Assembly (NCBI GenBank): GCA_034189385.1
Contig: JAXHVD010000008.1
Location: 98,396-162,395, forward strand
Reading direction: 5' to 3'
Source: Thermodesulfobacteriota bacterium
Lineage (GTDB): Bacteria > Desulfobacterota > Desulfobacteria > Desulfobacterales > C00003060
Length of the DNA stretch: 64,000 bases
Part shown: positions 1 to 11,689 of the stretch, piece after piece
Layout of the letters: each line of letters opens with the position of its first letter
Position numbering within the stretch: position 1 is the first letter of the stretch
The notes under the pieces: generated by a model
What the model saw: only the letters and a program-made list of their open reading frames with translations
What the model was told of the DNA's origin: nothing
The model's database searches: none
Translations under genes and position numbers: made by a program

Positions 1-503
1 AGCGTCACGCCCGTGTGCATGTGCATCTTCATGACCGGAACGGAGACGACAAGATCGTATTCAAAGACTTCCGGGCAAACCTTCAGAGAATCGATGGCAA
101 GACCATTAGGGACCGCCACCTTGACAAAGGGTCGGGCATTCATGTCTATGAGGGGACAATGACGCTTTTCTGCGATGGCTGTAATACCAGAGGTGTCAAA
201 GGCCTCAAGGGCCTTCACCCCCACGATGGGGCTTTCTCCAATAGCGACCTGTGCCCCGGCCTTTCTAAAGCAATCAATGGCAGCGGCCACGACCTGGGGG
301 TCTGTCACGATGCCTTCCCCAGGAGGGGCCACCCTGCCGGCATTGGGCTTCAGCAGGACCCGTTTCCCCCGGGCAGGCGAAAGATCCACTTGGGCCAAGG
401 CCGCGCAGGTGTTGGCATAGGGACCTTTTCCGGCAGCTACAAGGACTGACGGCCGTCCTCCCACGGGAAGAAAGGGGCTGTCAGTGAGAGACTTGGATGT
501 CAT
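1..503 (-). CDS. DUF362-family (iron-sulfur-associated) protein, 5' part; runs off the left edge of the window
   Basis: Not in the ORF track because no stop lies in the window. Hand translation from ATG 503: MTSKSLTDSPFLPVGG...RGKRVLLKPNAG...TDPQVVAAAIDCFRKAGAQVAIGESP...YDLVVSVPVMKMHMHTGVT. The VLLKPN, IGESP and PxMKxH..GVT motifs are typical of DUF362. Confidence 0.8.
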   Translation of the reverse strand, partial: MTSKSLTDSPFLPVGGRPSVLVAAGKGPYANTCAALAQVDLSPARGKRVLLKPNAGRVAPPGEGIVTDPQVVAAAIDCFRKAGAQVAIGESPIVGVKALEAFDTSGITAIAEKRHCPLIDMNARPFVKVAVPNGLAIDSLKVCPEVFEYDLVVSVPVMKMHMHTGVT

Positions 504-705: not shown

Positions 706-3700
706 TCAGCGCTTGGCAGCCCTCTTCTTTGAACGAGACTTCTTGTTCGCTTTCAGGAGTGGGCAATCAGAACCGAGACAATCTTTGTTCGTCTTTCGCT
801 GGCGACAGACAACGGAAGCCTCTGCCAGTAACGTAATGGGGAGAATTGTTTTGGACAATTCTGCCGCCTTTTTCAGGGCAATCCAGGAGTCTCTCTGGCA
901 GCATCGAGCGGCTTTCAGTTTAGCGATTTCAGTAAGCACAGCCTGGGTCACGGTTTGCACGGTCTTTCGCTCAGATGGTTTTAACGGATTGGCGTCAAGT
1001 ATGAGGCTGAAGGAAATCCCCACGCCGACTGCGGCCCCGCACACGCCCATGAAGGCGCAGTGCCCCCCTGCAATGGTGCTGCCCCGTTTGATCCCTTCTG
1101 AAATCGTAGCATGGGAAATATCCCCACCAAGATTTCGAAAAGTAGAGAGAACAATCCCCGGCACCATGGCGTGGTGTTCTGGACCGTGGACAGGGATAGC
1201 AGGATGTCTTCTGATATCTTCTAAGAGGGAAAGCATATCCGTCTCTCTTGTCTCCAGACAGATGTGCTCGATGGCCTTCAGGCCATCCTTCAGATGGCAT
1301 GTGTCGCATACGAAATGTCCGTGTTCACAAAGGGCATTTGCAGAAAATGTCTTCTGACAGTAGGCGCAGGCCACCTCTTTGGGCTTTGAAAGATAGATAA
1401 TGGGTGCGCCGCAGACCATGCACCCCGATGCCATTTTAGTCGAGACGAGGGGCTGAAGGACCTCACCCGGATCAGCGATGACAAAAGGGGGGCTTTTTAC
1501 TTCCGGAGCCTGAAAACAGGCACAGGTGTTTTCTGCTGCCACGTTGGTAACGGCACCCTCTTCGTCAAGGATGAAGACGTCCTCCCCCAGAAGCTCAGCT
1601 TCTGCCTTAGGCAAATGGCAGACAATCCCTGGCATCAGCACCGTGCCTTTGGCAGAGACGATGCTCGGCAAGGGGCCGCGATACATGACCCTGACCTGTT
1701 CCGAAGAAAGTGGTTTTCGGGCCAGATAGGTAAGGGAAAAAAAGGGGTGTCCCTGGACCTCGCGATAGGGAAATCGTTTGATAAGCTGAATGGATTGAAA
1801 ACCAGATTCCTCCAGGATGCCGATCAGATCCTTTTGCGTCATGGCCCCTGCAATACATTCGCCTCGTAGTATCTCGTCATTACGAATGACAGGATCTGGT
1901 TCTGAATCACAGACCACATCAGAGATGACCAGTCTGCCTCCTTGACGCAGGACTCTGTAGATCTCCGAGTATGACCGTCGCTTGTTCGCCGAAAGGTTCA
2001 TGACGCAGTTAGACAAAATCACGTCCACGGATTCGTCTTCCAGGGGAAGTGCTTCAAGGTAGCCCTTTTTGAAGACGATATTCTTGTAACCTAGATTCTT
2101 GGACACCCCTTTTAGGCCTTCGTTGGCAAGATGAAGCATGGGGTCCAGCATGTCCACGCCTATGACCATTCCTGTTGGTCCGGTCAACCGCGCGGCCACA
2201 AAGCATTCCACGCCGCTTCCACACCCCAGATCAACGACTTGTTCTCCTAGCTGGATTTCGGCATCTATGACAGGGCTGCCGCACCCATAGCCGCGAAATC
2301 GAAATCTCTCCGGGATGTGAGAGATCAATTCCTCAGGATAGCAAACTGGGTTTAAGATCTCTTTTTTCTTATCGCCCACGGCTTCGGTATAAAAGGACTT
2401 CACGACGGCCAGGCTCTTCTCCTGTGCTGTGGCCAGTAGACAGTTTGAATGGACCAATGCCACACGACCATGGGCCCCGCAGCTTTCAAGGACATCGCCC
2501 ATCTTCAAGCGCAGTTGAGGGGCCTGGGTTTCTTTTTGCCGACGGGCTTCTTCTGAGATGAGCCACAGCGCCATCTTTTCATACAAGGGCGTGTAGGGAT
2601 CCTTGCCCATGAAGGCATGGCCGTGAATGTAACTGTGATCCGTATCACCGCCGCCCAAAAGGAAGCGCAGGGAAGAAGAGAGCCCGGCTACTGTTGCTTC
2701 GCGAATCTGGCTGAGCACAGGACTCTGCCGCCAGGCCCTGTCAAGGCCGTCACCGAGCCCCGTTGCCAGCTCGGGGATATTGACTAGTGCTGCAGAAGGA
2801 TACAACCTGCCATCGGGACCCACGGCAAGGGATTCCCAAGCTGTCGTGGTCCCGTCATGGATGGTGTTGGCGGGGGCAAAGACCTGTGTCTTTAGGGCCT
2901 CTATGTTATCGATTTCAATGCCTCGCTCCTTTGCCCGTCGTGATGCGCGAATGAGACCTTGAAAGATCTCCTCTGGTAGGGCAAACTGTTCTGCTTTGCC
3001 CCGTCCCCGGATGAAATACCACATGAAATGGACATTTCCCGCCCCCACGTCAGCTGCAAAATCAACGATTTCAGGCATGTCACCCGTATTGCTCATGTTA
3101 ACGCACATGGAGATGGTGTAGGGGATGTGTTTTGAGTGAAGCCCTTTCAGGTTCTTGACGAGTCTTTCAAATGTCCCCTTGCCGCGAATCTGGTCATGCC
3201 GCTCCTGAAGGCCGTCTACGCTGATCTGGAGATGAAAACGATCTAAGGGCCATCTGCTCTGTGCCAACACAGAGGAAAGCTGCATACCGTTGGTGAGCAC
3301 CACCACGTGGGTGGCCTCATAGGCAAGTATGGCACGGACTATCTCTTCAAAGTCCCTATAGATGAAGGGCTCTCCACCGGTGAACACATATACGCGACAC
3401 CCCAGTTCATGGGCCTCATGGGCCAGTTTTAGTACCAGACCGCTTGAGATTTCTGCCTTATCCTCAGGTGAAGAGACAAAAAGACAGTGGTTGCACTTCA
3501 GGTTGCAGCGGTTTGTCACATGAAACCAGAGCTCTTTGAGGCGGTCGAGCTTGAGAATCGCGGCCCTGCCTGGATACGGTAACGGAGTCGTGTCTGGCAA
3601 GCGTTCGATGAACCTATGAACGGAAAGATCTCCATGGAGCCTGCCCGTTTGGCCTATTTGACGCAGTAGGGCATCGCCGGCCTTGTTGGGAACAAACCAT

Positions 3701-3777
3701 GCAGATGCTCCTTTTTGAACATAGACAGCGGTGTCCTCGTACTCGATCCGGGTCCAACCTTGAATGTCAAAGCTCAT
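706..3777 (-). CDS. Multidomain fusion: radical SAM domain + ArsM/AS3MT-like SAM methyltransferase + C-terminal Cys-rich DUF5714-like domain
   Basis: CNLKCNHC radical SAM motif and FTGGEP; ArsM-type motifs GYGCGSP, DLGCGSG, DVILSNCVMNL and GECIAGA; C-terminal CMVC/CAYC/CEHGHFVCDTC, PVHGPEHH, GHCAFMGVCGAA and RCCQR. Confidence 0.85.
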   Translation of the reverse strand: MSFDIQGWTRIEYEDTAVYVQKGASAWFVPNKAGDALLRQIGQTGRLHGDLSVHRFIERLPDTTPLPYPGRAAILKLDRLKELWFHVTNRCNLKCNHCLFVSSPEDKAEISSGLVLKLAHEAHELGCRVYVFTGGEPFIYRDFEEIVRAILAYEATHVVVLTNGMQLSSVLAQSRWPLDRFHLQISVDGLQERHDQIRGKGTFERLVKNLKGLHSKHIPYTISMCVNMSNTGDMPEIVDFAADVGAGNVHFMWYFIRGRGKAEQFALPEEIFQGLIRASRRAKERGIEIDNIEALKTQVFAPANTIHDGTTTAWESLAVGPDGRLYPSAALVNIPELATGLGDGLDRAWRQSPVLSQIREATVAGLSSSLRFLLGGGDTDHSYIHGHAFMGKDPYTPLYEKMALWLISEEARRQKETQAPQLRLKMGDVLESCGAHGRVALVHSNCLLATAQEKSLAVVKSFYTEAVGDKKKEILNPVCYPEELISHIPERFRFRGYGCGSPVIDAEIQLGEQVVDLGCGSGVECFVAARLTGPTGMVIGVDMLDPMLHLANEGLKGVSKNLGYKNIVFKKGYLEALPLEDESVDVILSNCVMNLSANKRRSYSEIYRVLRQGGRLVISDVVCDSEPDPVIRNDEILRGECIAGAMTQKDLIGILEESGFQSIQLIKRFPYREVQGHPFFSLTYLARKPLSSEQVRVMYRGPLPSIVSAKGTVLMPGIVCHLPKAEAELLGEDVFILDEEGAVTNVAAENTCACFQAPEVKSPPFVIADPGEVLQPLVSTKMASGCMVCGAPIIYLSKPKEVACAYCQKTFSANALCEHGHFVCDTCHLKDGLKAIEHICLETRETDMLSLLEDIRRHPAIPVHGPEHHAMVPGIVLSTFRNLGGDISHATISEGIKRGSTIAGGHCAFMGVCGAAVGVGISFSLILDANPLKPSERKTVQTVTQAVLTEIAKLKAARCCQRDSWIALKKAAELSKTILPITLLAEASVVCRQRKTNKDCLGSDCPLLKANKKSRSKKRAAKR

Positions 3778-4172: not shown

Positions 4173-5258
4173 ATGAAAAGAACAGGCATTGCAGATAGCC
4201 CCCTTCACGGGGGCAAGGCCCCCAGATGGCTTTTTAAGCGCATGACCGCCTTGGCACGTCAGCTGGTCCTGGTGATGGTGGAGGAGTTTGGAAGCAGGGA
4301 GCTTCTATTGAGGCTTTCTGACCCCCACTGGTTTCAAGCCTTTGGCTCGGTGCTCGGTTTTGACTGGCACAGTAGCGGGCTTACGACAACGTCCTGCGGG
4401 GCCATCAAGGAAGGGGTCAGGGGGCTGGAAAAAGACCTGGGGTTTTTCGTGACTGGCGGAAAAGGCAAAGCTGCCTTAAAGACACCGGAGAGTATCCTCG
4501 CTTTCGGTTCATCCCTTTCCACTGATCCCGAGTCCCTTGTCTATGCCAGCAGAATCTCCGCCAAGGTAGACAACGCCGGCCTTCAGGACGGATACAGGCT
4601 CTATCATCACACCTTCTTCTTCACTTCTAATGGGAACTGGACGGTGGTGCAACAGGGGATGAACGAGACAAATAGATACGCCAGGCGGTATCACTGGCTG
4701 GGAGAAGCCGTCTCCAGCTTCACTTGTGAACCCCATGCGGCAATCTGCACGGGCAAAGTAAAAAAGGATGTCTTAAACATGGTGGCCCAGGAAGGCGAAG
4801 ATGCCCGCAAGGCAAGCGCCCTTATTGGGCAGGAACACCCAGAGACCCTGGTCAAAGAGTTGAAGCGGATTCAAGCCTTAAAGCTTCCTGCCCGCCACGA
4901 GATCCTGGCCCAGGACCTCCATCCCGACCGACTCTATAAAGTATTCATTAAAACCTACGAGGCCCAGCCCAAGGATTTTGAGACGCTGATCGGCCTTCGG
5001 GGGGTGGGTCCAAAAGGAATCCGGGCCCTGGCCCTCTTGTCGGAGCTCATATACGGGGCCAGTGTGAGCTTCCGGGATCCTGCCCGGTTCAGCTTTGCCC
5101 ACGGCGGCAAAGATGGGCACCCCTACCCAGTGGACAGGCAATCCTATGACCACTCCATTGAGATCCTAAGGCAAGCGGTTGAAGGGGCAAAGATCGGTGA
5201 CCGGCAGAAGATGGACGCCATCAGGAAACTCAAGGGGATCCAAAGGCGCACAAGATAA
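4173..5258 (+). CDS. DUF763 family protein
   Basis: Typical motifs LHGGKAPRWLF, FDWHSSGLTT, WTVVQQGMN, HhH-like GLRGVGPK and FAHGGKDGHPYPV. Confidence 0.85.
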   Translation: MKRTGIADSPLHGGKAPRWLFKRMTALARQLVLVMVEEFGSRELLLRLSDPHWFQAFGSVLGFDWHSSGLTTTSCGAIKEGVRGLEKDLGFFVTGGKGKAALKTPESILAFGSSLSTDPESLVYASRISAKVDNAGLQDGYRLYHHTFFFTSNGNWTVVQQGMNETNRYARRYHWLGEAVSSFTCEPHAAICTGKVKKDVLNMVAQEGEDARKASALIGQEHPETLVKELKRIQALKLPARHEILAQDLHPDRLYKVFIKTYEAQPKDFETLIGLRGVGPKGIRALALLSELIYGASVSFRDPARFSFAHGGKDGHPYPVDRQSYDHSIEILRQAVEGAKIGDRQKMDAIRKLKGIQRRTR

Positions 5259-5461: not shown

Positions 5462-7048
5462 TCAGGCGTGTTCGCGGGTCTTGTGGAAGGCGATGTCCGG
5501 TGACTGCTCCATCACGTAGCCCAGTTCCCAGTTGCTGGGCGCAAGATAGGCGAGCTGCCCCTCCCCGTCATTGGCCAGGTTGGGGCGATTCTTCTTTTCA
5601 AAGGCTTCCAGCTTCTTTTTGTCGTCACAGGTGATCCAGCGGGCCGTGGTGTAGCTGATGGGCTCGTATTCGGCATCAACCCAGTATTCTGCCTTGAGAC
5701 GGGCTATGGTGACATCGAACTGCAATACCCCCACGGCCCCCAAGATATAGTCGTTTCCTCCCAAGGGCCGGAAGACCTGCACTGCCCCTTCTTCGGCCAT
5801 CTGGGCCAATCCCTTTTGGAGCTGCTTTACCTTCAAGGGGTTCTTGAGTCGCACCCGTCGAAAGTGCTCAGGGGCGAAGTTGGGGATGCCGCTGAAACGG
5901 AGGCACTCCTTGTCTGTAAAGGTATCGCCGATCTTGATCGTACCGTGGTTGTGGATACCGATGATGTCGCCGGCAAAGGCCTCGTTCACATGGGCACGAT
6001 CCTGGGCCATGAAGATGATGGCATTATTCCACGTCACTTCCTTGCCGATGCGGTGATGGATCACCTTCATGCCCCTGGTGAATTTCCCTGAACAGATGCG
6101 GACAAAGGCGATGCGGTCGCGGTGGGCGGGATCCATGTTCGCCTGGATCTTAAAGGCAAAGGCGGAAAAGGGGGCCTCGTATGGCGAGACCTTCCTGGGA
6201 ACGGCCGCCCTGGGGCCGGGAGGAGGAGCCATTTCTAAAAAGGCCTCCAGCAGCTCCTTCACGCCGAAATTGTTGACCGCACTTCCAAAGAAGACAGGTG
6301 TCTGACTTCCCTGAAGGTAATGCTCAATGGAAAAGGGGTCGGCAGCCCCTTCGATGAGTGCGATATCCTCACGAAGCTCTTCAGCTTGGCTGCCCAGGAA
6401 CTGATCCAGCTTGGGATCGGAGAGGTCGGTGATGACAATGCCATTGTCATGTCTCCCGTCTTCGCCCGGGGTGAAGAGATGGAGTTCTTTTCGGTAGATA
6501 TTGTAGACGCCTTTGAAACCTTTCCCCATGCCGATGGGCCAAGACAGAGGGGCACACTCCACCTGGAGCTTGTCCTCAATCTCTGAGAGGACGTCTAGGG
6601 GGGGCATGCCTTCGCGGTCCAGTTTGTTGATGAAGGTGATGATGGGGGTGTTGCGCATCCTGCAAACCTCCATGAGCTTTTCGGTCTGGGGTTCCACCCC
6701 CTTGGCGCTGTCTATGACCATGAGTGCACTGTCTACGGCCGTGAGGACCCGGTAGGTATCCTCAGAAAAATCCTGGTGGCCCGGGGTATCTAGCAGGTTG
6801 ATCTCATAGTCCTGGTAGTTAAACTTCATGACCGACGTCGTCACAGAGATACCCCGTTCCTTTTCTATGGACATCCAGTCGCTGGTGGCATGCCGCGCCG
6901 CCTTCCGGGCCTTTACGGCCCCTGCCAACTGAATGGCCCCTCCAAATAGAAGGAGTTTCTCGGTGAGTGTGGTTTTACCGGCATCTGGATGGCTGATGAT
7001 ACCGAAGGTCCGGCGTCTTTGTATCTCTTTTTCGTATGCCTTTGTCAT
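5462..7048 (-). CDS. prfC: Peptide chain release factor 3
   Basis: [38 protein letters not shown] and [14 protein letters not shown]. The start may instead be GTG 7063. Confidence 0.97.
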
Positions 7049-7190
7049 GGTCTCTTTTCTCACTTGATGATGTCGTAAAAAGCTCTCTTTCTTCTCAAAT
7101 TCCGCAGGGACACACGGTCTGGGGGCCGCACTCCTTACGTTTCACGTTTTTACTACCTGGGAGAGATGATTTAGGTGTCAAAGGGAATGG

Positions 7191-8708
7191 TCAAGTGTAG
7201 TAACCTAAAATAGCTTGGCAGAGGCCGGGGATGGTGTATTCCGTGGCTTCCATGTCTACATTGAATCCAAGTTCTCTTGCCGTATCCGATGTAATAGGGC
7301 CGATGCTTGCTGTTTTGATATCCCCGATAAGGGGCTCAAACCGCTCAGGAGGTAGGCACGCCTTGAAGTTGCGAACCGTTGAAGAGCTGGTAAAGGTGAC
7401 AATATCGACAGCTCCTTTTTCCAAAAGGCCAACGAGTTCATCTACATTATCGCAGACCTCCTCGGTCTGGTACGCAGGGATTTCATCCACTGTGGCTCCC
7501 ATTTTACGAACTTCTATGGGCAGAATAGGTCGGGCCTCCTTGGCGCGGGGAAGGAGCACCCTTTTGCCCTCCATCTCTTTGTCCTTAAAGGCCTCTATAA
7601 TGGACTCTGCCCGAAAGGTCTTGGGCACAACGTCACTGTTGAGGCCAAAATCCCGCAGCCGCCTTGCCGTGGCAGGGCCGATGGTGGCCGTGCGGATATC
7701 TTTGAGGGCCCGCACGTCTTGGCCGCTTTTATAGAGGCGATCAAAGAAAAAAGAGACCCCGTTTACGCTGGTAAGAACGAGCCAGTCGTAGGTGTCAAGG
7801 CGACCGATGGCGCTGTCTAATGGGGCCCAGTCTTGTGGAGGTACCACGCGGATAGTGGGAAATTCCAGGCACTCTGCTCCCAGGGCCGAGAGGTGCGACA
7901 CCAAATCACTGGCCTGTTCGCGGGTCCTGGTCACAACCACGGTCTTGCCAAAGAGAGGTTTCTTTTCAAACCAGTTCAAGGTGTCCCTAAGCCTTACGAC
8001 GTCGCCTACCACGATGGCCACAGGCGGTGTAAGGTTGGCGGCCTGGGCCTTTGCTACAATGGTTTCAAGGGTCCCGACTATTGTGGTCTGCTTGGGTGTG
8101 GTGCCCCACCTTACCAGGGCCACGGGAGTTTCGGGGGGGCGGCCAGCTGCGATCAGTTTTTCTGCAATCTTTGGAAGGTTTTTCATGCCCATCAAGATGA
8201 CAAGGGTACCCACACCTGTAGCGAGCTTGGACCAGTCCACTGTAGAATGGGGCTTTGTGGGGTCTTCATGGCCGGTAACAATCCCCACGCTAGCCGTGTA
8301 CCTGCGATCCGTAAGAGGGATGCCTGCATAGGAGGGTGCAGCAATGGCCGACGTAATACCAGGGACAATCTCAAAAGGGACACCTGCCTTTGCCAGGGCT
8401 TCTGCCTCTTCGCCGCCTCTACCGAAGATGAAGGGGTGGCCGCCTTTAAGACGAACCACAGTATGGCCCTCCATTGCCTTTTGAACAAGAAGCTTGTTCA
8501 TCTGGTCTTGAGGCAGGGTGTGGGCCCCTTGCTCCTTTCCCACATACAGGGTCTCGGCATCTTCTCTTGCATGTTTCAAGAGCTTGGATGAGGCCAGGTG
8601 GTCATATATGATGACATCGGCCTTTTTGAGGCACTCCATCCCCTTGACGGTAATAAGATCTGGATCGCCTGGCCCCGCACCGACGAGATAGGCTTTGCCC
8701 TCCTTCAC
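7191..8708 (-). CDS. cobA: Uroporphyrinogen-III C-methyltransferase / uroporphyrinogen-III synthase fusion (CobA/HemD)
   Basis: YLVGAGPGDPDLIT and RLKGGHPFIFGRGGEE N-terminal domain; VVVTRTREQA, LTSVNGV and FTSSSTV HemD domain. Confidence 0.95.
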   Translation of the reverse strand: MKEGKAYLVGAGPGDPDLITVKGMECLKKADVIIYDHLASSKLLKHAREDAETLYVGKEQGAHTLPQDQMNKLLVQKAMEGHTVVRLKGGHPFIFGRGGEEAEALAKAGVPFEIVPGITSAIAAPSYAGIPLTDRRYTASVGIVTGHEDPTKPHSTVDWSKLATGVGTLVILMGMKNLPKIAEKLIAAGRPPETPVALVRWGTTPKQTTIVGTLETIVAKAQAANLTPPVAIVVGDVVRLRDTLNWFEKKPLFGKTVVVTRTREQASDLVSHLSALGAECLEFPTIRVVPPQDWAPLDSAIGRLDTYDWLVLTSVNGVSFFFDRLYKSGQDVRALKDIRTATIGPATARRLRDFGLNSDVVPKTFRAESIIEAFKDKEMEGKRVLLPRAKEARPILPIEVRKMGATVDEIPAYQTEEVCDNVDELVGLLEKGAVDIVTFTSSSTVRNFKACLPPERFEPLIGDIKTASIGPITSDTARELGFNVDMEATEYTIPGLCQAILGYYT

Positions 8709-9646
8709 GTTTTCAAGTCCTTCACCGCTCGGCCCAAGATACTTCTTAAGATCTCTGCCCCTCCTTTTTCAAGAAGCATGTTGGCTAATTCTACCCCAAG
8801 CTCTTCATGTTTTCGCACCGGACCGGTGATCTCATCGCGGAGAAGAACGGTGCCGTCCACCTCGGCCACCAGTCCTGTCAAAAAGATGCGGTCTCCGTCT
8901 ACATTGGCCTTGGCGGCAATGGGGACCTGGCAACCACCCTCAAGGCGCCCCAGAAAAGCCCGTTCGCTTTCCACTGCCAGGCGCGTTTCCCGATGATCTA
9001 TGGCAGAGACCAGCTGCAGGGAGTCTTTGTCTTCTCGCGTTTCAATGGATAGGGCCCCTTGTCCGATGGCAGGAAGCATGGTGGATTCAGGGATATACTC
9101 TGTAATGTGGGCCTCCAAGCCCAGCCTTCTCACGCCAGCGGCTGCTACAATAATGGCATCTAAAGACCCTGTCTTCAGTTTTCGTATGCGGGTGTCAAGG
9201 TTCCCTCTTAAGGGGTGGATCTTGATGTCCGGTCTTTGATGTCGAACCTGGGCACCACGTCTGAGGCTGCTGCTGCCAACCTGGGCGCCCTTTGGAAGGT
9301 CGTTGAAGCAATGGCCGTTTCTGGAGATCAGCACATCTGACGGATTTTCCCGTTTTGGAATGGCTCCTATACAAAGGCCTGGCGGGATCTCAGCAGGCAT
9401 ATCCTTCATGCTGTGGACTGCCAAGTCCACTCTTCCTTCCAGCAGGGCCGTTTCAATCTCCTTGACAAAGAGCCCCTTTCCACCTACCTGGGCCAGGGGC
9501 ACATCTGTGATCTTGTCTCCCGTGGTCTTTATCCTGACCACTTCGACTTCCTGTTCAGGGTAAAGGGCAAGGAGTTGGGATCGGACCCATTCGGCCTGCC
9601 AAACCGCAAGAGCACTTCCCCGTGTGCCGATCCTAATGACACCCAT
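8705..9646 (-). CDS. hemC: Hydroxymethylbilane synthase (porphobilinogen deaminase)
   Basis: IGTRGSALAVWQ, GGKGLFVKE, AVHSMKD, GSSSLRR and LEGGCQVP. Confidence 0.97.
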   Translation of the reverse strand: MGVIRIGTRGSALAVWQAEWVRSQLLALYPEQEVEVVRIKTTGDKITDVPLAQVGGKGLFVKEIETALLEGRVDLAVHSMKDMPAEIPPGLCIGAIPKRENPSDVLISRNGHCFNDLPKGAQVGSSSLRRGAQVRHQRPDIKIHPLRGNLDTRIRKLKTGSLDAIIVAAAGVRRLGLEAHITEYIPESTMLPAIGQGALSIETREDKDSLQLVSAIDHRETRLAVESERAFLGRLEGGCQVPIAAKANVDGDRIFLTGLVAEVDGTVLLRDEITGPVRKHEELGVELANMLLEKGGAEILRSILGRAVKDLKT

Positions 9647-9648
9647 GG

Positions 9649-9888
9649 TTAGTGTCCGCAGGTCTTGCAGCTTGTGGCGCTACAAGATGCACAAGCTGAC
9701 CCCTTTGAACTGGAAAACCCGCTTTCCCCTGAGCCGGAGGAGGCACCTGCGGTCTTGAAGCTGCAACATGAAAGGAGTTTTTCCACCTTCTTGCCGTTGC
9801 AATGGGGACACTCGACCTTCTGGCTTCCCAGGACCAGGGCCTCAAAATCTTTGTCGCACTTGGTGCAGTGGTACTCAAAGATGGGCAT
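9649..9888 (-). CDS. FmdB-family zinc-ribbon protein
   Basis: MPIFEYHCTKC...FE...CPHC signature with a Cys-rich tail; GGAG RBS. Confidence 0.9.
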   Translation of the reverse strand: MPIFEYHCTKCDKDFEALVLGSQKVECPHCNGKKVEKLLSCCSFKTAGASSGSGESGFSSSKGSACASCSATSCKTCGH

Positions 9889-10133
9889 ATATGGTCTCCT
9901 CGTTGATATGGTCGCTGAAAGTAGTGATGCAAAGCCCTAACTACTTGTCAATGTTGACAACCTTGAGCAAAGAAAACCGCCTCCCTCCGGCCTCCAATCC
10001 TTACCAACAGCACGCCCTCATGATTGGCGGAAAGCGCCTGAAGCCGACGTTCAGCGGTCTTTACCCCGTGAACTTTTAATACTTAACAATAGAATATAAG
10101 ACGATCTTTCCCATTTGTCCAGCCCCACCTTTG

Positions 10134-11090
10134 TCAGCAGACACACTCAATTTCTTCAAGGACCGCTGCGGCCAGTAGGGGAAACATGATCTCATGATGG
10201 CCGATGAGGCTGTAACCTCTTCCACCCCTGCTCGTGGGGCGGTGGACGACATTGGTCGTGGGCCGATAGTGCCGGATAAAATCCATGTTGACGGCGGTAA
10301 ATCGGTCTACCTTGCTCCCCCTGTTGCGAACCAAGGTAAGGGCCTTTAAGAAGACTTCAGGCAGCACCACTGCTGAGCCGACGTTCATGTAAACGCCCTC
10401 CTCCAGTGCAGCGACTACAGAGGCAAAGAGCCTGAAATCCAGATGGGTCGCCTTGCCCGTGGCCTCAGGGTCGAATCCTGGATGGATGTGAATAATGTCG
10501 GTTCCCACGGCTACATGGACAGTGGCAGGGATCTCGTACCGTGCGGCTGTGGCAAGGATACTCTCCTGGCCAAAGGGCAAATCTTCTTCAATGATGGCCC
10601 GTCCCACGGCCTCACCAAGGCCCAATCCTCTATCAGCGGCTGTTCCAATGGCGCGGTTCAAAAAATGTGCAGTCTCCTCTGCCATGCCAAAAGCACCCCT
10701 GTCCAAGCCTTCCATGACGTCTTCCGAGGTCCTCCCAATCATGGCCACCTCAAGGTCATGTATGATGCCTGCCCCGTTCATGGCAATGGCGGTGATCACG
10801 CCACGGCCCATCAAATCCACCACCACAGGGTTCAGGCCCACCTTGATGACGTGAGCACCCATGGCCATGACGACGACTTTGCCCCCGTTATGGGCCTCTG
10901 CAATAGCCGAGACGATCTCCTTAAAATCCTTGGCTGCCAGAATATCGGGCAGGCCCCCCAAAAAATCTCTAAACGTTCCTTCCCCTTTCCAGGGGCGGCC
11001 GAAATGGGCGCGATCCACCTTGCTTTTTCGCGATGCCAGGGGATAGGTCTTTAGAGGTGCCTGATCTATAGGTTTGAACCGTTTTTCCAT
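10134..11090 (-). CDS. Conserved hypothetical protein (GSU2086-like, probable deoxyhypusine-synthase-like fold)
   Basis: GAHVIKVGL, AMNGAGIIHD, TVHVAVGTDI, GSAVVLPEVFLK and GHHEIMFPLL; sits directly downstream of gmhA. Confidence 0.7.
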   Translation of the reverse strand: MEKRFKPIDQAPLKTYPLASRKSKVDRAHFGRPWKGEGTFRDFLGGLPDILAAKDFKEIVSAIAEAHNGGKVVVMAMGAHVIKVGLNPVVVDLMGRGVITAIAMNGAGIIHDLEVAMIGRTSEDVMEGLDRGAFGMAEETAHFLNRAIGTAADRGLGLGEAVGRAIIEEDLPFGQESILATAARYEIPATVHVAVGTDIIHIHPGFDPEATGKATHLDFRLFASVVAALEEGVYMNVGSAVVLPEVFLKALTLVRNRGSKVDRFTAVNMDFIRHYRPTTNVVHRPTSRGGRGYSLIGHHEIMFPLLAAAVLEEIECVC

Positions 11091-11098
11091 CTGCTTCT

Positions 11099-11689
11099 TT
11101 ATGACCCCCCCATAAAGCTCTCTGGGAAGAGGATTCGTTCGACAAGCTCACATAAAAGGTGCTCTGCCGCAAGGTGAACTTCCTGAATACGGGGAGTGGC
11201 CTGGGAATCCACAATCAAACAGAGGTCACATCTCTGGACCAGTTCACCGCCCCCGCATCCTGTCAAACCTATGGTGCAAAGGCCCATCTCCCGGGCCGTT
11301 TCCATGGCCACAAGGACGTTTTTGGAGCCCCCGCTCGTACTGATGCCAAAGGCAATATCATCTCTTTTGCCGAGGGCCTTGATCTGCTTGGAAAAGACCT
11401 CGTCAAAGGAATAATCATTGGAGATACTGGTCAAGACAGAGGTGTCTGTAGACAGCGCCAGGGCGGGCAGGGGCCTGCGTTCCACGGCAAAACGGTTTAC
11501 GAATTCTGCCGCAATGTGTTGGGCATCAGCGGCACTTCCACCGTTACCAAAGATCAGAAGCTTGTGGCCAGAAGCAAAACAGGTTGCCACCCTTTGGGCT
11601 GCCTTAAGAAGCCCCTCCGTATTTTCTTTGACAAAGCGTTCCGTCACGCGGACGTTTTCTTCCAATGCCTTCAGGATGATCTCTTTCAT
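11099..11689 (-). CDS. gmhA: Phosphoheptose isomerase
   Basis: FGNGGSAADAQHIAAE, SNDYSFDEVF, ISTSG and PRIQEVH. Confidence 0.95.
   Translation of the reverse strand: MKEIILKALEENVRVTERFVKENTEGLLKAAQRVATCFASGHKLLIFGNGGSAADAQHIAAEFVNRFAVERRPLPALALSTDTSVLTSISNDYSFDEVFSKQIKALGKRDDIAFGISTSGGSKNVLVAMETAREMGLCTIGLTGCGGGELVQRCDLCLIVDSQATPRIQEVHLAAEHLLCELVERILFPESFMGGS

Follow-up and report, generated by a model that had tools for sequence, protein, structure and literature searches.

Which reaction is served by a polypeptide that joins a radical S-adenosylmethionine (SAM) domain to an ArsM-type methyltransferase and a cysteine-rich DUF5714 region? The question is raised by a gene for a protein of 1023 amino acids (aa) in a 64,000-nucleotide stretch of contig JAXHVD010000008.1 from a Thermodesulfobacteriota bacterium (GCA_034189385.1; the whole stretch is called the window here), which an earlier note made from the sequence had proposed to couple the methylation of arsenic to radical carbon-arsenic (C-As) bond formation in an anaerobe. 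ArsS and ArsL are the two radical SAM enzymes forming C-As bonds that we found in the accessible literature. According to the accessible parts of the respective reports, ArsS acts together with ArsM in Synechocystis (PMC8552651; PMC12159101) and adenosylates dimethylarsenite (DMAs(III)) to DDMAA (5'-deoxy-5'-dimethylarsinoyl-adenosine) in a redox-neutral reaction (PMC13598754; 10.64898/2026.04.29.721666). Because the fusion sits in the place of ArsS in related anaerobes, it likely makes the ArsS-type C-As building block, and we consider it probable that it does the work of ArsM and ArsS, methylating arsenite (As(III)) to DMAs(III) and then adenosylating the latter to DDMAA. Independent genomic evidence supports the proposed coupling: the fusion and ArsS nearly exclude each other, the fusion co-occurs and shares operons with ArsS-associated genes, and its methyltransferase domain groups with ArsS-linked ArsMs. 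The literature searched, which lacked most subscription journals, contained nothing on this fusion, on DUF5714 or on TIGR04283, and a prior mention is possible.

As the earlier note had it, the three domains are fused; they share one intact open reading frame (ORF). The protein matches Radical_SAM (residues 87-241), Methyltransf_31 (511-656) and DUF5714 (836-1007) in Pfam and consists of an RRE-like domain, a radical SAM core, a cysteine-less SPASM region, a cysteine tail, an ArsM-type methyltransferase, an AS3MT-like extension and the DUF5714 region, in this order (Table 1), with the motifs CNLKCNHC (C91/95/98), GGEP (134), GYGCG (496), DLGCGSG (516), SNCV (589), ECIAGA (640) and RCC (958). 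The search returned 964 homologues at E<=0.001; all three Pfam domains were present in 120 of 120 homologues among the matches listed, at 55-97% identity, and 23 cysteines are invariant in an alignment of 121 fusion sequences. The 79 fusion loci belong to Thermodesulfobacteriota (47), Planctomycetota (9), Chlorobiota (6), Myxococcota (6) and other groups, and cultured hosts among the homologues include Maridesulfovibrio, Desulfuromonas sp. AOP6 and Syntrophotalea acetylenivorans. We conclude that the fusion is a real family conserved over several anaerobic phyla and not a product of chance. No NCBIfam model reached its cut-off with the fusion protein, the top matches being ArsM-type models and MbdU, all sub-threshold.

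The exchange with ArsS was followed in two samples of genomes. Among 201 genomes of the phylum, the fusion-type radical domain occurs in 15 (12 families) and ArsS in 72, with both in a single genome (G077), where TIGR04283 is present twice, once per enzyme-bearing contig; the wider radical family is present in 19 genomes, 18 of them without ArsS. TIGR04283 was found in 15 of 15 fusion genomes and in 67 of 72 ArsS genomes, compared with 14 of 115 genomes with neither enzyme and, as a control, 3 of 35 genomes carrying stand-alone ArsM only. Four of those 14 hold divergent members of the radical family (G014, G018, G058, G094), three of which are neighbours of TIGR04169-like genes together with TIGR04283 or DUF2064 genes, TIGR04169 being present in three of the four genomes; a fifth (G055) holds another radical-SAM-ArsM fusion, so that 9 of 110 remain. 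These nine (G036, G041, G054, G084, G113, G179, G187, G194, G197), most of which have DUF2064 adjacent or fused, may be due to incomplete assemblies, to gene loss or to a further enzyme. The second sample, comprising 50 of the 78 genomes behind loci L002-L080 (completeness unknown, one genome seemingly common to the first sample), contained TIGR04283 in 43 genomes at E<=1e-45, 36 of them above the cut-off.

The genes that recur beside the fusion over distant taxa (DUF2064/TIGR04282, TIGR04283, VTT, MerA-like oxidoreductase, DUF547 and DUF3047) are also those that surround ArsS loci (n=38). In the fetched flanks, DUF2064/TIGR04282-like or TIGR04283-like genes were found at 13 of 79 fusion loci from four phyla and any ArsS-type neighbour at 25, while ArsS itself was found at none. 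Twelve of 14 further fusion loci from the phylum were fetched: six had TIGR04282/04283-like genes adjacent, three VTT or MerA-like genes only, and three none of these. Fusion operons with ArsS-associated genes are seen at L145, L146 and L150-L153, in several of which the fusion occupies the ArsS slot, a one-for-one exchange that suggests the same product, and in P0126 a TIGR04283-like part is joined to radical SAM and ArsM within a single chain. The unfused members of about 520 aa at L142, L143 and L144 (G058, G018, G094), whose C-terminus reads GYCICF, are flanked by TIGR04169-like AhpD and TIGR04283 or DUF2064 genes. In NCBIfam, TIGR04282, TIGR04283 and TIGR04169 bear the name 'arsenosugar biosynthesis' proteins. 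The pathway can be confined to a gene set of the arsenosugar type, as opposed to that of arsinothricin.

The methyltransferase domain retains most of what defines an ArsM. Of the ArsM cysteine motifs that the earlier note had reported as kept, GYGCG, SNCV and ECIAGA are indeed present, but a clear counterpart exists for just three of the four cysteines of ArsM, namely C499, C591 and C641, all invariant in the 121 sequences. ArsM/AS3MT proteins (CmArsM 4fr0, CrArsM 5evj, human AS3MT 8xt7) are the best matches of the fusion by sequence and occupy the top ranks in Foldseek, sharing its SAM motif and C-terminal extension; the model aligns with CmArsM over residues 477-740 (Z 27.8, root-mean-square deviation (rmsd) 6.0, 255 aligned), which, together with the NF040538 match (Table 1), bears out the AS3MT-like extension described in the earlier note. 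They differ from the fusion in that the latter lacks the CC pair of the Cys44 region, embeds the methyltransferase in 1023 aa and lies outside a resistance operon. The whole protein stays below the ArsM cut-offs (PRK11873, 206 bits, cut-off 263; NF040538, 159, cut-off 500; NF038099, 120, cut-off 400). In a quick tree with two long outgroups, the fusion methyltransferase domains group with four ArsS-linked ArsMs (SH-aLRT 92) and are set off from stand-alone ArsMs (94), and so do not cluster outside ArsM. That the protein could be an arsenic-detoxifying ArsM with passenger domains, as might be thought of the sole ArsM-like gene found in the source genome and of a patchy gene (0 of 12 congeners have the fusion; 4 of 12 have ArsS), is scarcely credible in view of this separation from stand-alone ArsMs, the lack of ars matches near 91 loci in single queries, the invariance of the radical core motifs in 121 sequences and the unfused radical members that fill the same operon slot.

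The radical half was analysed on an AF2 model built from a 132-row alignment (pLDDT 90.2, pTM 0.74), a single-sequence model (pLDDT 37) having been discarded. As modelled, the first half of the fusion is an RRE/radical-SAM/SPASM scaffold, because residues 6-414 align best with CteB (5wgg; Z 28.6, rmsd 3.5, 388 aligned). VIA-align covered the model over 6-414 with 5wgg and over 1-419 with TigE (8vpo), and the fold, SPASM region included, is common to these maturases and anSME (4k36). Neither the RRE-like N-terminus nor the cysteine-less SPASM-like region (301-420) nor the C433/C446 tail behind it had been noticed in the earlier note. The C91/95/98 cluster motif is invariant (121/121). The SPASM cysteines form a gradient, with the full set in the radical-SAM-ArsM protein of G014, three in unfused members and none in the clade of the fusion; basal family members retain them. 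P0172, P0174 and P0189 have an N-terminal ArsM and intact SPASM cysteines, and their methyltransferase domains fall outside the group of C-terminally fused ones, hinting, on this sequence grouping, at a second fusion event.

A scaffold of this kind, with CteB, a maturase of peptides that are made on ribosomes and modified after translation (RiPPs), as its best match and RRE/SPASM proteins as its nearest outside sequences, might suggest a radical SAM maturase of peptides or proteins, in which the RRE binds a substrate that undergoes methylation or arsenylation as well. Unlike such maturases, however, the fusion has lost all SPASM (auxiliary-cluster) cysteines, has a shortened RRE, a cysteine tail and an ArsM, and lies among ArsS-type neighbours; no conserved small ORF was found on the same strand within 900 bp at the 79 loci, although a precursor could be unlinked; the only small ORFs in common were alternative frames of neighbour genes shared by close kin. 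We hold a maturase function to be highly improbable.

The tail between the two halves offers a candidate arsenic site. In the 59 representative rows that reach it, C446 is present in all, a cysteine near 433 in 56 and a third cysteine at 444 in 26. Unfused family members terminate directly after C433/C446, hence the tail is part of the radical enzyme, and for the same reason C433/C446, rather than the internal RCC, is the likely analogue of the ArsL tail, in which C-terminal cysteines bind arsenic (10.1101/2024.02.01.577332). The earlier note had the protein end in RCC and proposed that its cysteine-rich tail binds substrate or metal. RCC in fact spans residues 958-960, reads ARCCQRD and is followed by 63 residues that include the invariant C991, C1000 and C1005, and C433/C446 is the better candidate for binding the substrate. 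As an ArsL-like tail RCC was rejected on account of its internal position, the lack of a match to NF040542 and the C433/C446 end of unfused members. ArsL with ArsM (arsinothricin) resembles the fusion in pairing radical C-As bond formation with an ArsM and, by our reading of C433/C446, in holding arsenic on a cysteine tail; it differs in its terminal RCCLKC, and no arsQ or ars operon context was seen at the fusion.

By family models and fold, the radical domain lies outside ArsS and ArsL. It scored 49.2 bits with TIGR04167 (ArsS; cut-off 300) over model positions 3-145, and the fusion locus was absent from the ten matches of its genome to NF040542 (ArsL, RCCLKC tail, cut-off 450) at E<=0.001. 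In a quick tree of radical cores (n=85), ArsS forms a long branch of its own and the fusion family lies among RRE/SPASM enzymes, with a support of 51 for monophyly of the wider radical family after four rows without the motif had been dropped. The Synechocystis PCC 6803 pair of ArsS and ArsM shares with the fusion the combination of radical SAM and ArsM-type methyltransferase, a cysteine tail ending the radical domain and the neighbours listed above, to which AhpD is added for unfused members. ArsS, however, has about 320 aa and the tail HCxGCxAGxGSSC/U, in contrast to the RRE/SPASM scaffold, the tail ESCG...HSNC and the additional DUF5714 of the fusion, and TIGR04169 is found in 37 of 72 ArsS genomes but in 0 of 15 fusion genomes.

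Enzymes uniting radical SAM and ArsM in one polypeptide are not unique to this family. Three sampled genomes carry true fusions of ArsS and ArsM (L196:3796-5802, G150; L197:3556-5544, G156; L198:3246-5315, G126), which come in both domain orders and lie beside TIGR04283/DUF2064/VTT or MerA-like genes; L196 exceeds the TIGR04167 cut-off. In G055 (L199:3899-5746), the fusion partner of an ArsM from the same group is a third radical SAM type of about 295 aa that ends CYTC...SCSNTSCC; at E<=1e-30 this radical domain had no match among the NCBIfam radical models, and no ArsS was found in the TIGR04283-positive genome. A single in-frame TGA close to the end, which would be expected of a selenocysteine form, is found in many ArsS genes, those of the four congeners among them.

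The DUF5714 region contains 15 cysteines, 14 of them invariant. DUF5714 was detected in 19 of 201 phylum genomes, 15 of which are fusion genomes, and in G188 it is a separate gene behind a radical-SAM-ArsM gene. A zinc-finger-like module followed by DUF5714 (PF18978) is common to residues 782-1017 and MbdU (NF045648), which the accessible part of its source lists as a predicted selenoprotein (PMC13188914); the fusion differs in scoring 140.6 bits against a cut-off of 600 and in having no in-frame TGA, and so not the two selenocysteines of the MbdU type. A profile search found no solved structural relative of the region (best E 0.13), and an Atlas search with it returned DUF5714 clusters alone; in the fold search the matches were filled by the radical and methyltransferase domains, so that the region was hardly sampled. 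Its comparison with C_GCAxxG_C_C (PF09719) gave an hhalign probability of 1.1% (E 0.049) from shallow profiles. A stand-alone DUF5714 gene in G118 (L219:888-2877) immediately follows the gene of an ArsR/SmtB regulator that has a C-terminal CC, and is itself followed by a small cysteine-rich gene.

Several observations weigh against an ArsS-like role. The sampled genomes are related and not independent, so that Fisher p-values overstate the association; TIGR04283 occurs without either enzyme in the 9 of 110 phylum genomes given above and in 3 of 12 congeners; and 54 of 79 fusion loci have no marker neighbour, many of these loci being short. In the source genome, TIGR04283 (contig C30), VTT, DUF547 and MerA-like genes (C19) and DUF3047 (C56) are unlinked to the fusion, TIGR04282 and TIGR04169 were not found (the genome is 90% complete), and acr3 and arsC are on a contig other than that of the fusion. 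A survey for ars genes, as suggested in the earlier note, did not place any beside the family, single queries for acr3, arsC and arsR having matched nothing near 91 loci. The label 'arsenosugar' is an NCBIfam name alone. In the methyltransferase domain, the N-terminal CC pair of ArsM is replaced by LN and the counterpart of CmArsM Cys44 is missing or displaced. ArsS is found alongside the fusion in 6 of 50 second-sample genomes. Finally, a clade uniting the fusion family with ArsS was not rejected (approximately unbiased test, p-AU 0.68), for which reason an origin separate from ArsS is suggested by architecture only.

Some of these points would suit a gene set that acts, fusion included, on another substrate (Sb, Se, Bi, a thiol or a cofactor), the link to arsenic being inherited from names. 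The set is very common, with TIGR04283 carried by 95 of 201 phylum genomes, it is associated with no ars resistance genes near the 91 loci, and relatives of DUF5714 occur in the selenoprotein MbdU and beside CobW-like/RACo-like genes. We nevertheless regard such a substrate as distinctly unlikely: neither the three arsenic-binding cysteines nor the AS3MT extension varies, one stand-alone DUF5714 gene stands right behind an ArsR/SmtB regulator, and ArsS is, in the accessible parts of the two reports cited for it above, a proven DMAs(III) adenosylase.

Others concern the product. The fusion might serve the same downstream genes by forming a C-As bond in a product other than DDMAA, for example by starting from methylarsenite (MAs(III)), by adenosylating first, by making a mono- or trimethylated nucleoside or by transferring another SAM fragment. 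According to the accessible part of the CmArsM study, Cys44 and Cys72 are needed for the first methylation only, and Cys44 is needed to methylate As(III), not MAs(III) (PMC6138428). The CC pair is absent in 20 of 20 DUF5714-bearing representatives, probably through a single evolutionary event and not 20, and among representatives without DUF5714 it is kept in 13 and missing in 10, some of them truncated; 102 of 121 close homologues have a shifted cysteine, C479, which distant ones lack. The scaffold is unlike ArsS, both enzymes were retained in the six genomes mentioned, and ArsL is a CxxxCxxC enzyme capable of non-canonical SAM cleavage (10.1101/2024.02.01.577332), but the ArsL-type model did not match at the fusion locus and the one-for-one swap with ArsS in operons suggests an identical product, so that we consider a product other than DDMAA unlikely.

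If the fusion makes DDMAA, As(III) would be bound at C591/C641 (with C499), methylated twice and handed as DMAs(III) to the C433/C446 tail, by analogy with the arsenic-binding tail of ArsL. The single [4Fe-4S] cluster would cleave SAM, and the 5'-deoxyadenosyl (5'-dAdo) radical would add to arsenic; a redox-neutral 5'-dAdo addition, as in ArsS, would explain how the SPASM auxiliary clusters could be dispensed with. In the weakest step, DUF5714 would provide metal-bound or redox cysteines, possibly in place of ArsM Cys44 and an AhpD-like partner, and TIGR04283/TIGR04282 and other ArsS-associated proteins would process the product onward. More tentatively, we envisage that an enzyme of the RRE/SPASM maturase type was re-used for C-As bonds separately from ArsS and ArsL, gained a cysteine tail, shed its auxiliary clusters stepwise and was joined first to ArsM and later to DUF5714, a built-in reductant replacing the ArsM cysteine and the AhpD-like partner, to become a self-contained arsenite-to-DDMAA synthase.

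Table 1. Positions in the window of the fusion gene, its parts and the two genes beside it.
Feature	Position	Strand	Remarks
Whole fusion gene, 1023 aa	706..3777	-	uninterrupted ORF, ATG start
Residues 1-75, small N-terminal domain, three strands and two helices, RRE-like	3553..3777	-	AF2 secondary structure; in alignment with the RRE portion of CteB/TigE
Residues 76-300, radical SAM core	2878..3552	-	CxxxCxxC (C91, C95, C98) at 3484-3507 and GGEP, invariant
Residues 301-420, SPASM-like, zero cysteines	2518..2877	-	YPS replaces YPC, GGGD replaces GGGC
Residues 421-450, radical-domain tail, invariant C433 and C446	2428..2517	-	candidate As(III)-binding site (inferred)
Residues 451-690, ArsM-type methyltransferase	1708..2427	-	C499, C591, C641 correspond to CmArsM Cys72, Cys174, Cys224
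Residues 691-748, AS3MT/CmArsM-type C-terminal extension	1534..1707	-	NF040538 match 579-752; 4fr0 and 8xt7 alignments up to 740
Residues 781-1023, seven-cysteine zinc-finger-like module and helical DUF5714	709..1437	-	GPEHH, CxxxGxCG, RCC, C-x8-C-x4-C
DUF362 gene, 411 aa, 5' part in window, downstream of fusion	1..503	-	gap 202 bp
Divergent DUF763 gene upstream of fusion	4173-5258	+

The DUF362 gene does follow the fusion on the same strand, as the earlier note had pointed out, but it is no conserved partner: neither it nor a methyltransferase gene further downstream had a match near the 91 loci, and both were rejected as such. The two genes lie at G000:C63 96683-98898 (minus strand); the DUF362 protein has a cysteine-rich C-terminal extension, and the further gene encodes a generic class I methyltransferase. 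DUF763 is likewise not conserved beside the fusion. Positions 5462-11689 (minus strand) hold what we take, from the resemblance of the sequences, to be a housekeeping run (peptide chain release factor 3, cobA/hemD, hemC, gmhA). Elsewhere, L025:9980-14209 encodes a family member of 1410 aa with an extra C-terminal URO-D-like domain, and in two wetland metatranscriptomes short contigs cover parts of the fusion gene (share 0.08), which were not counted, DNA carry-over being possible.

On the more tentative of these readings, the synthase would enable sulfate reducers, green sulfur bacteria and planctomycetes of anoxic sediments to produce arsenosugars or arsenolipids. If the proposed function is correct, the predicted arsenosugar pathway would extend to anaerobes that annotation has missed because they lack ArsS. 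The fusion would then represent a third family of radical SAM enzymes for C-As bonds, one whose different scaffold would widen this chemistry, and would show how a SPASM enzyme can lose its auxiliary clusters, and DUF5714 would receive a first testable role.

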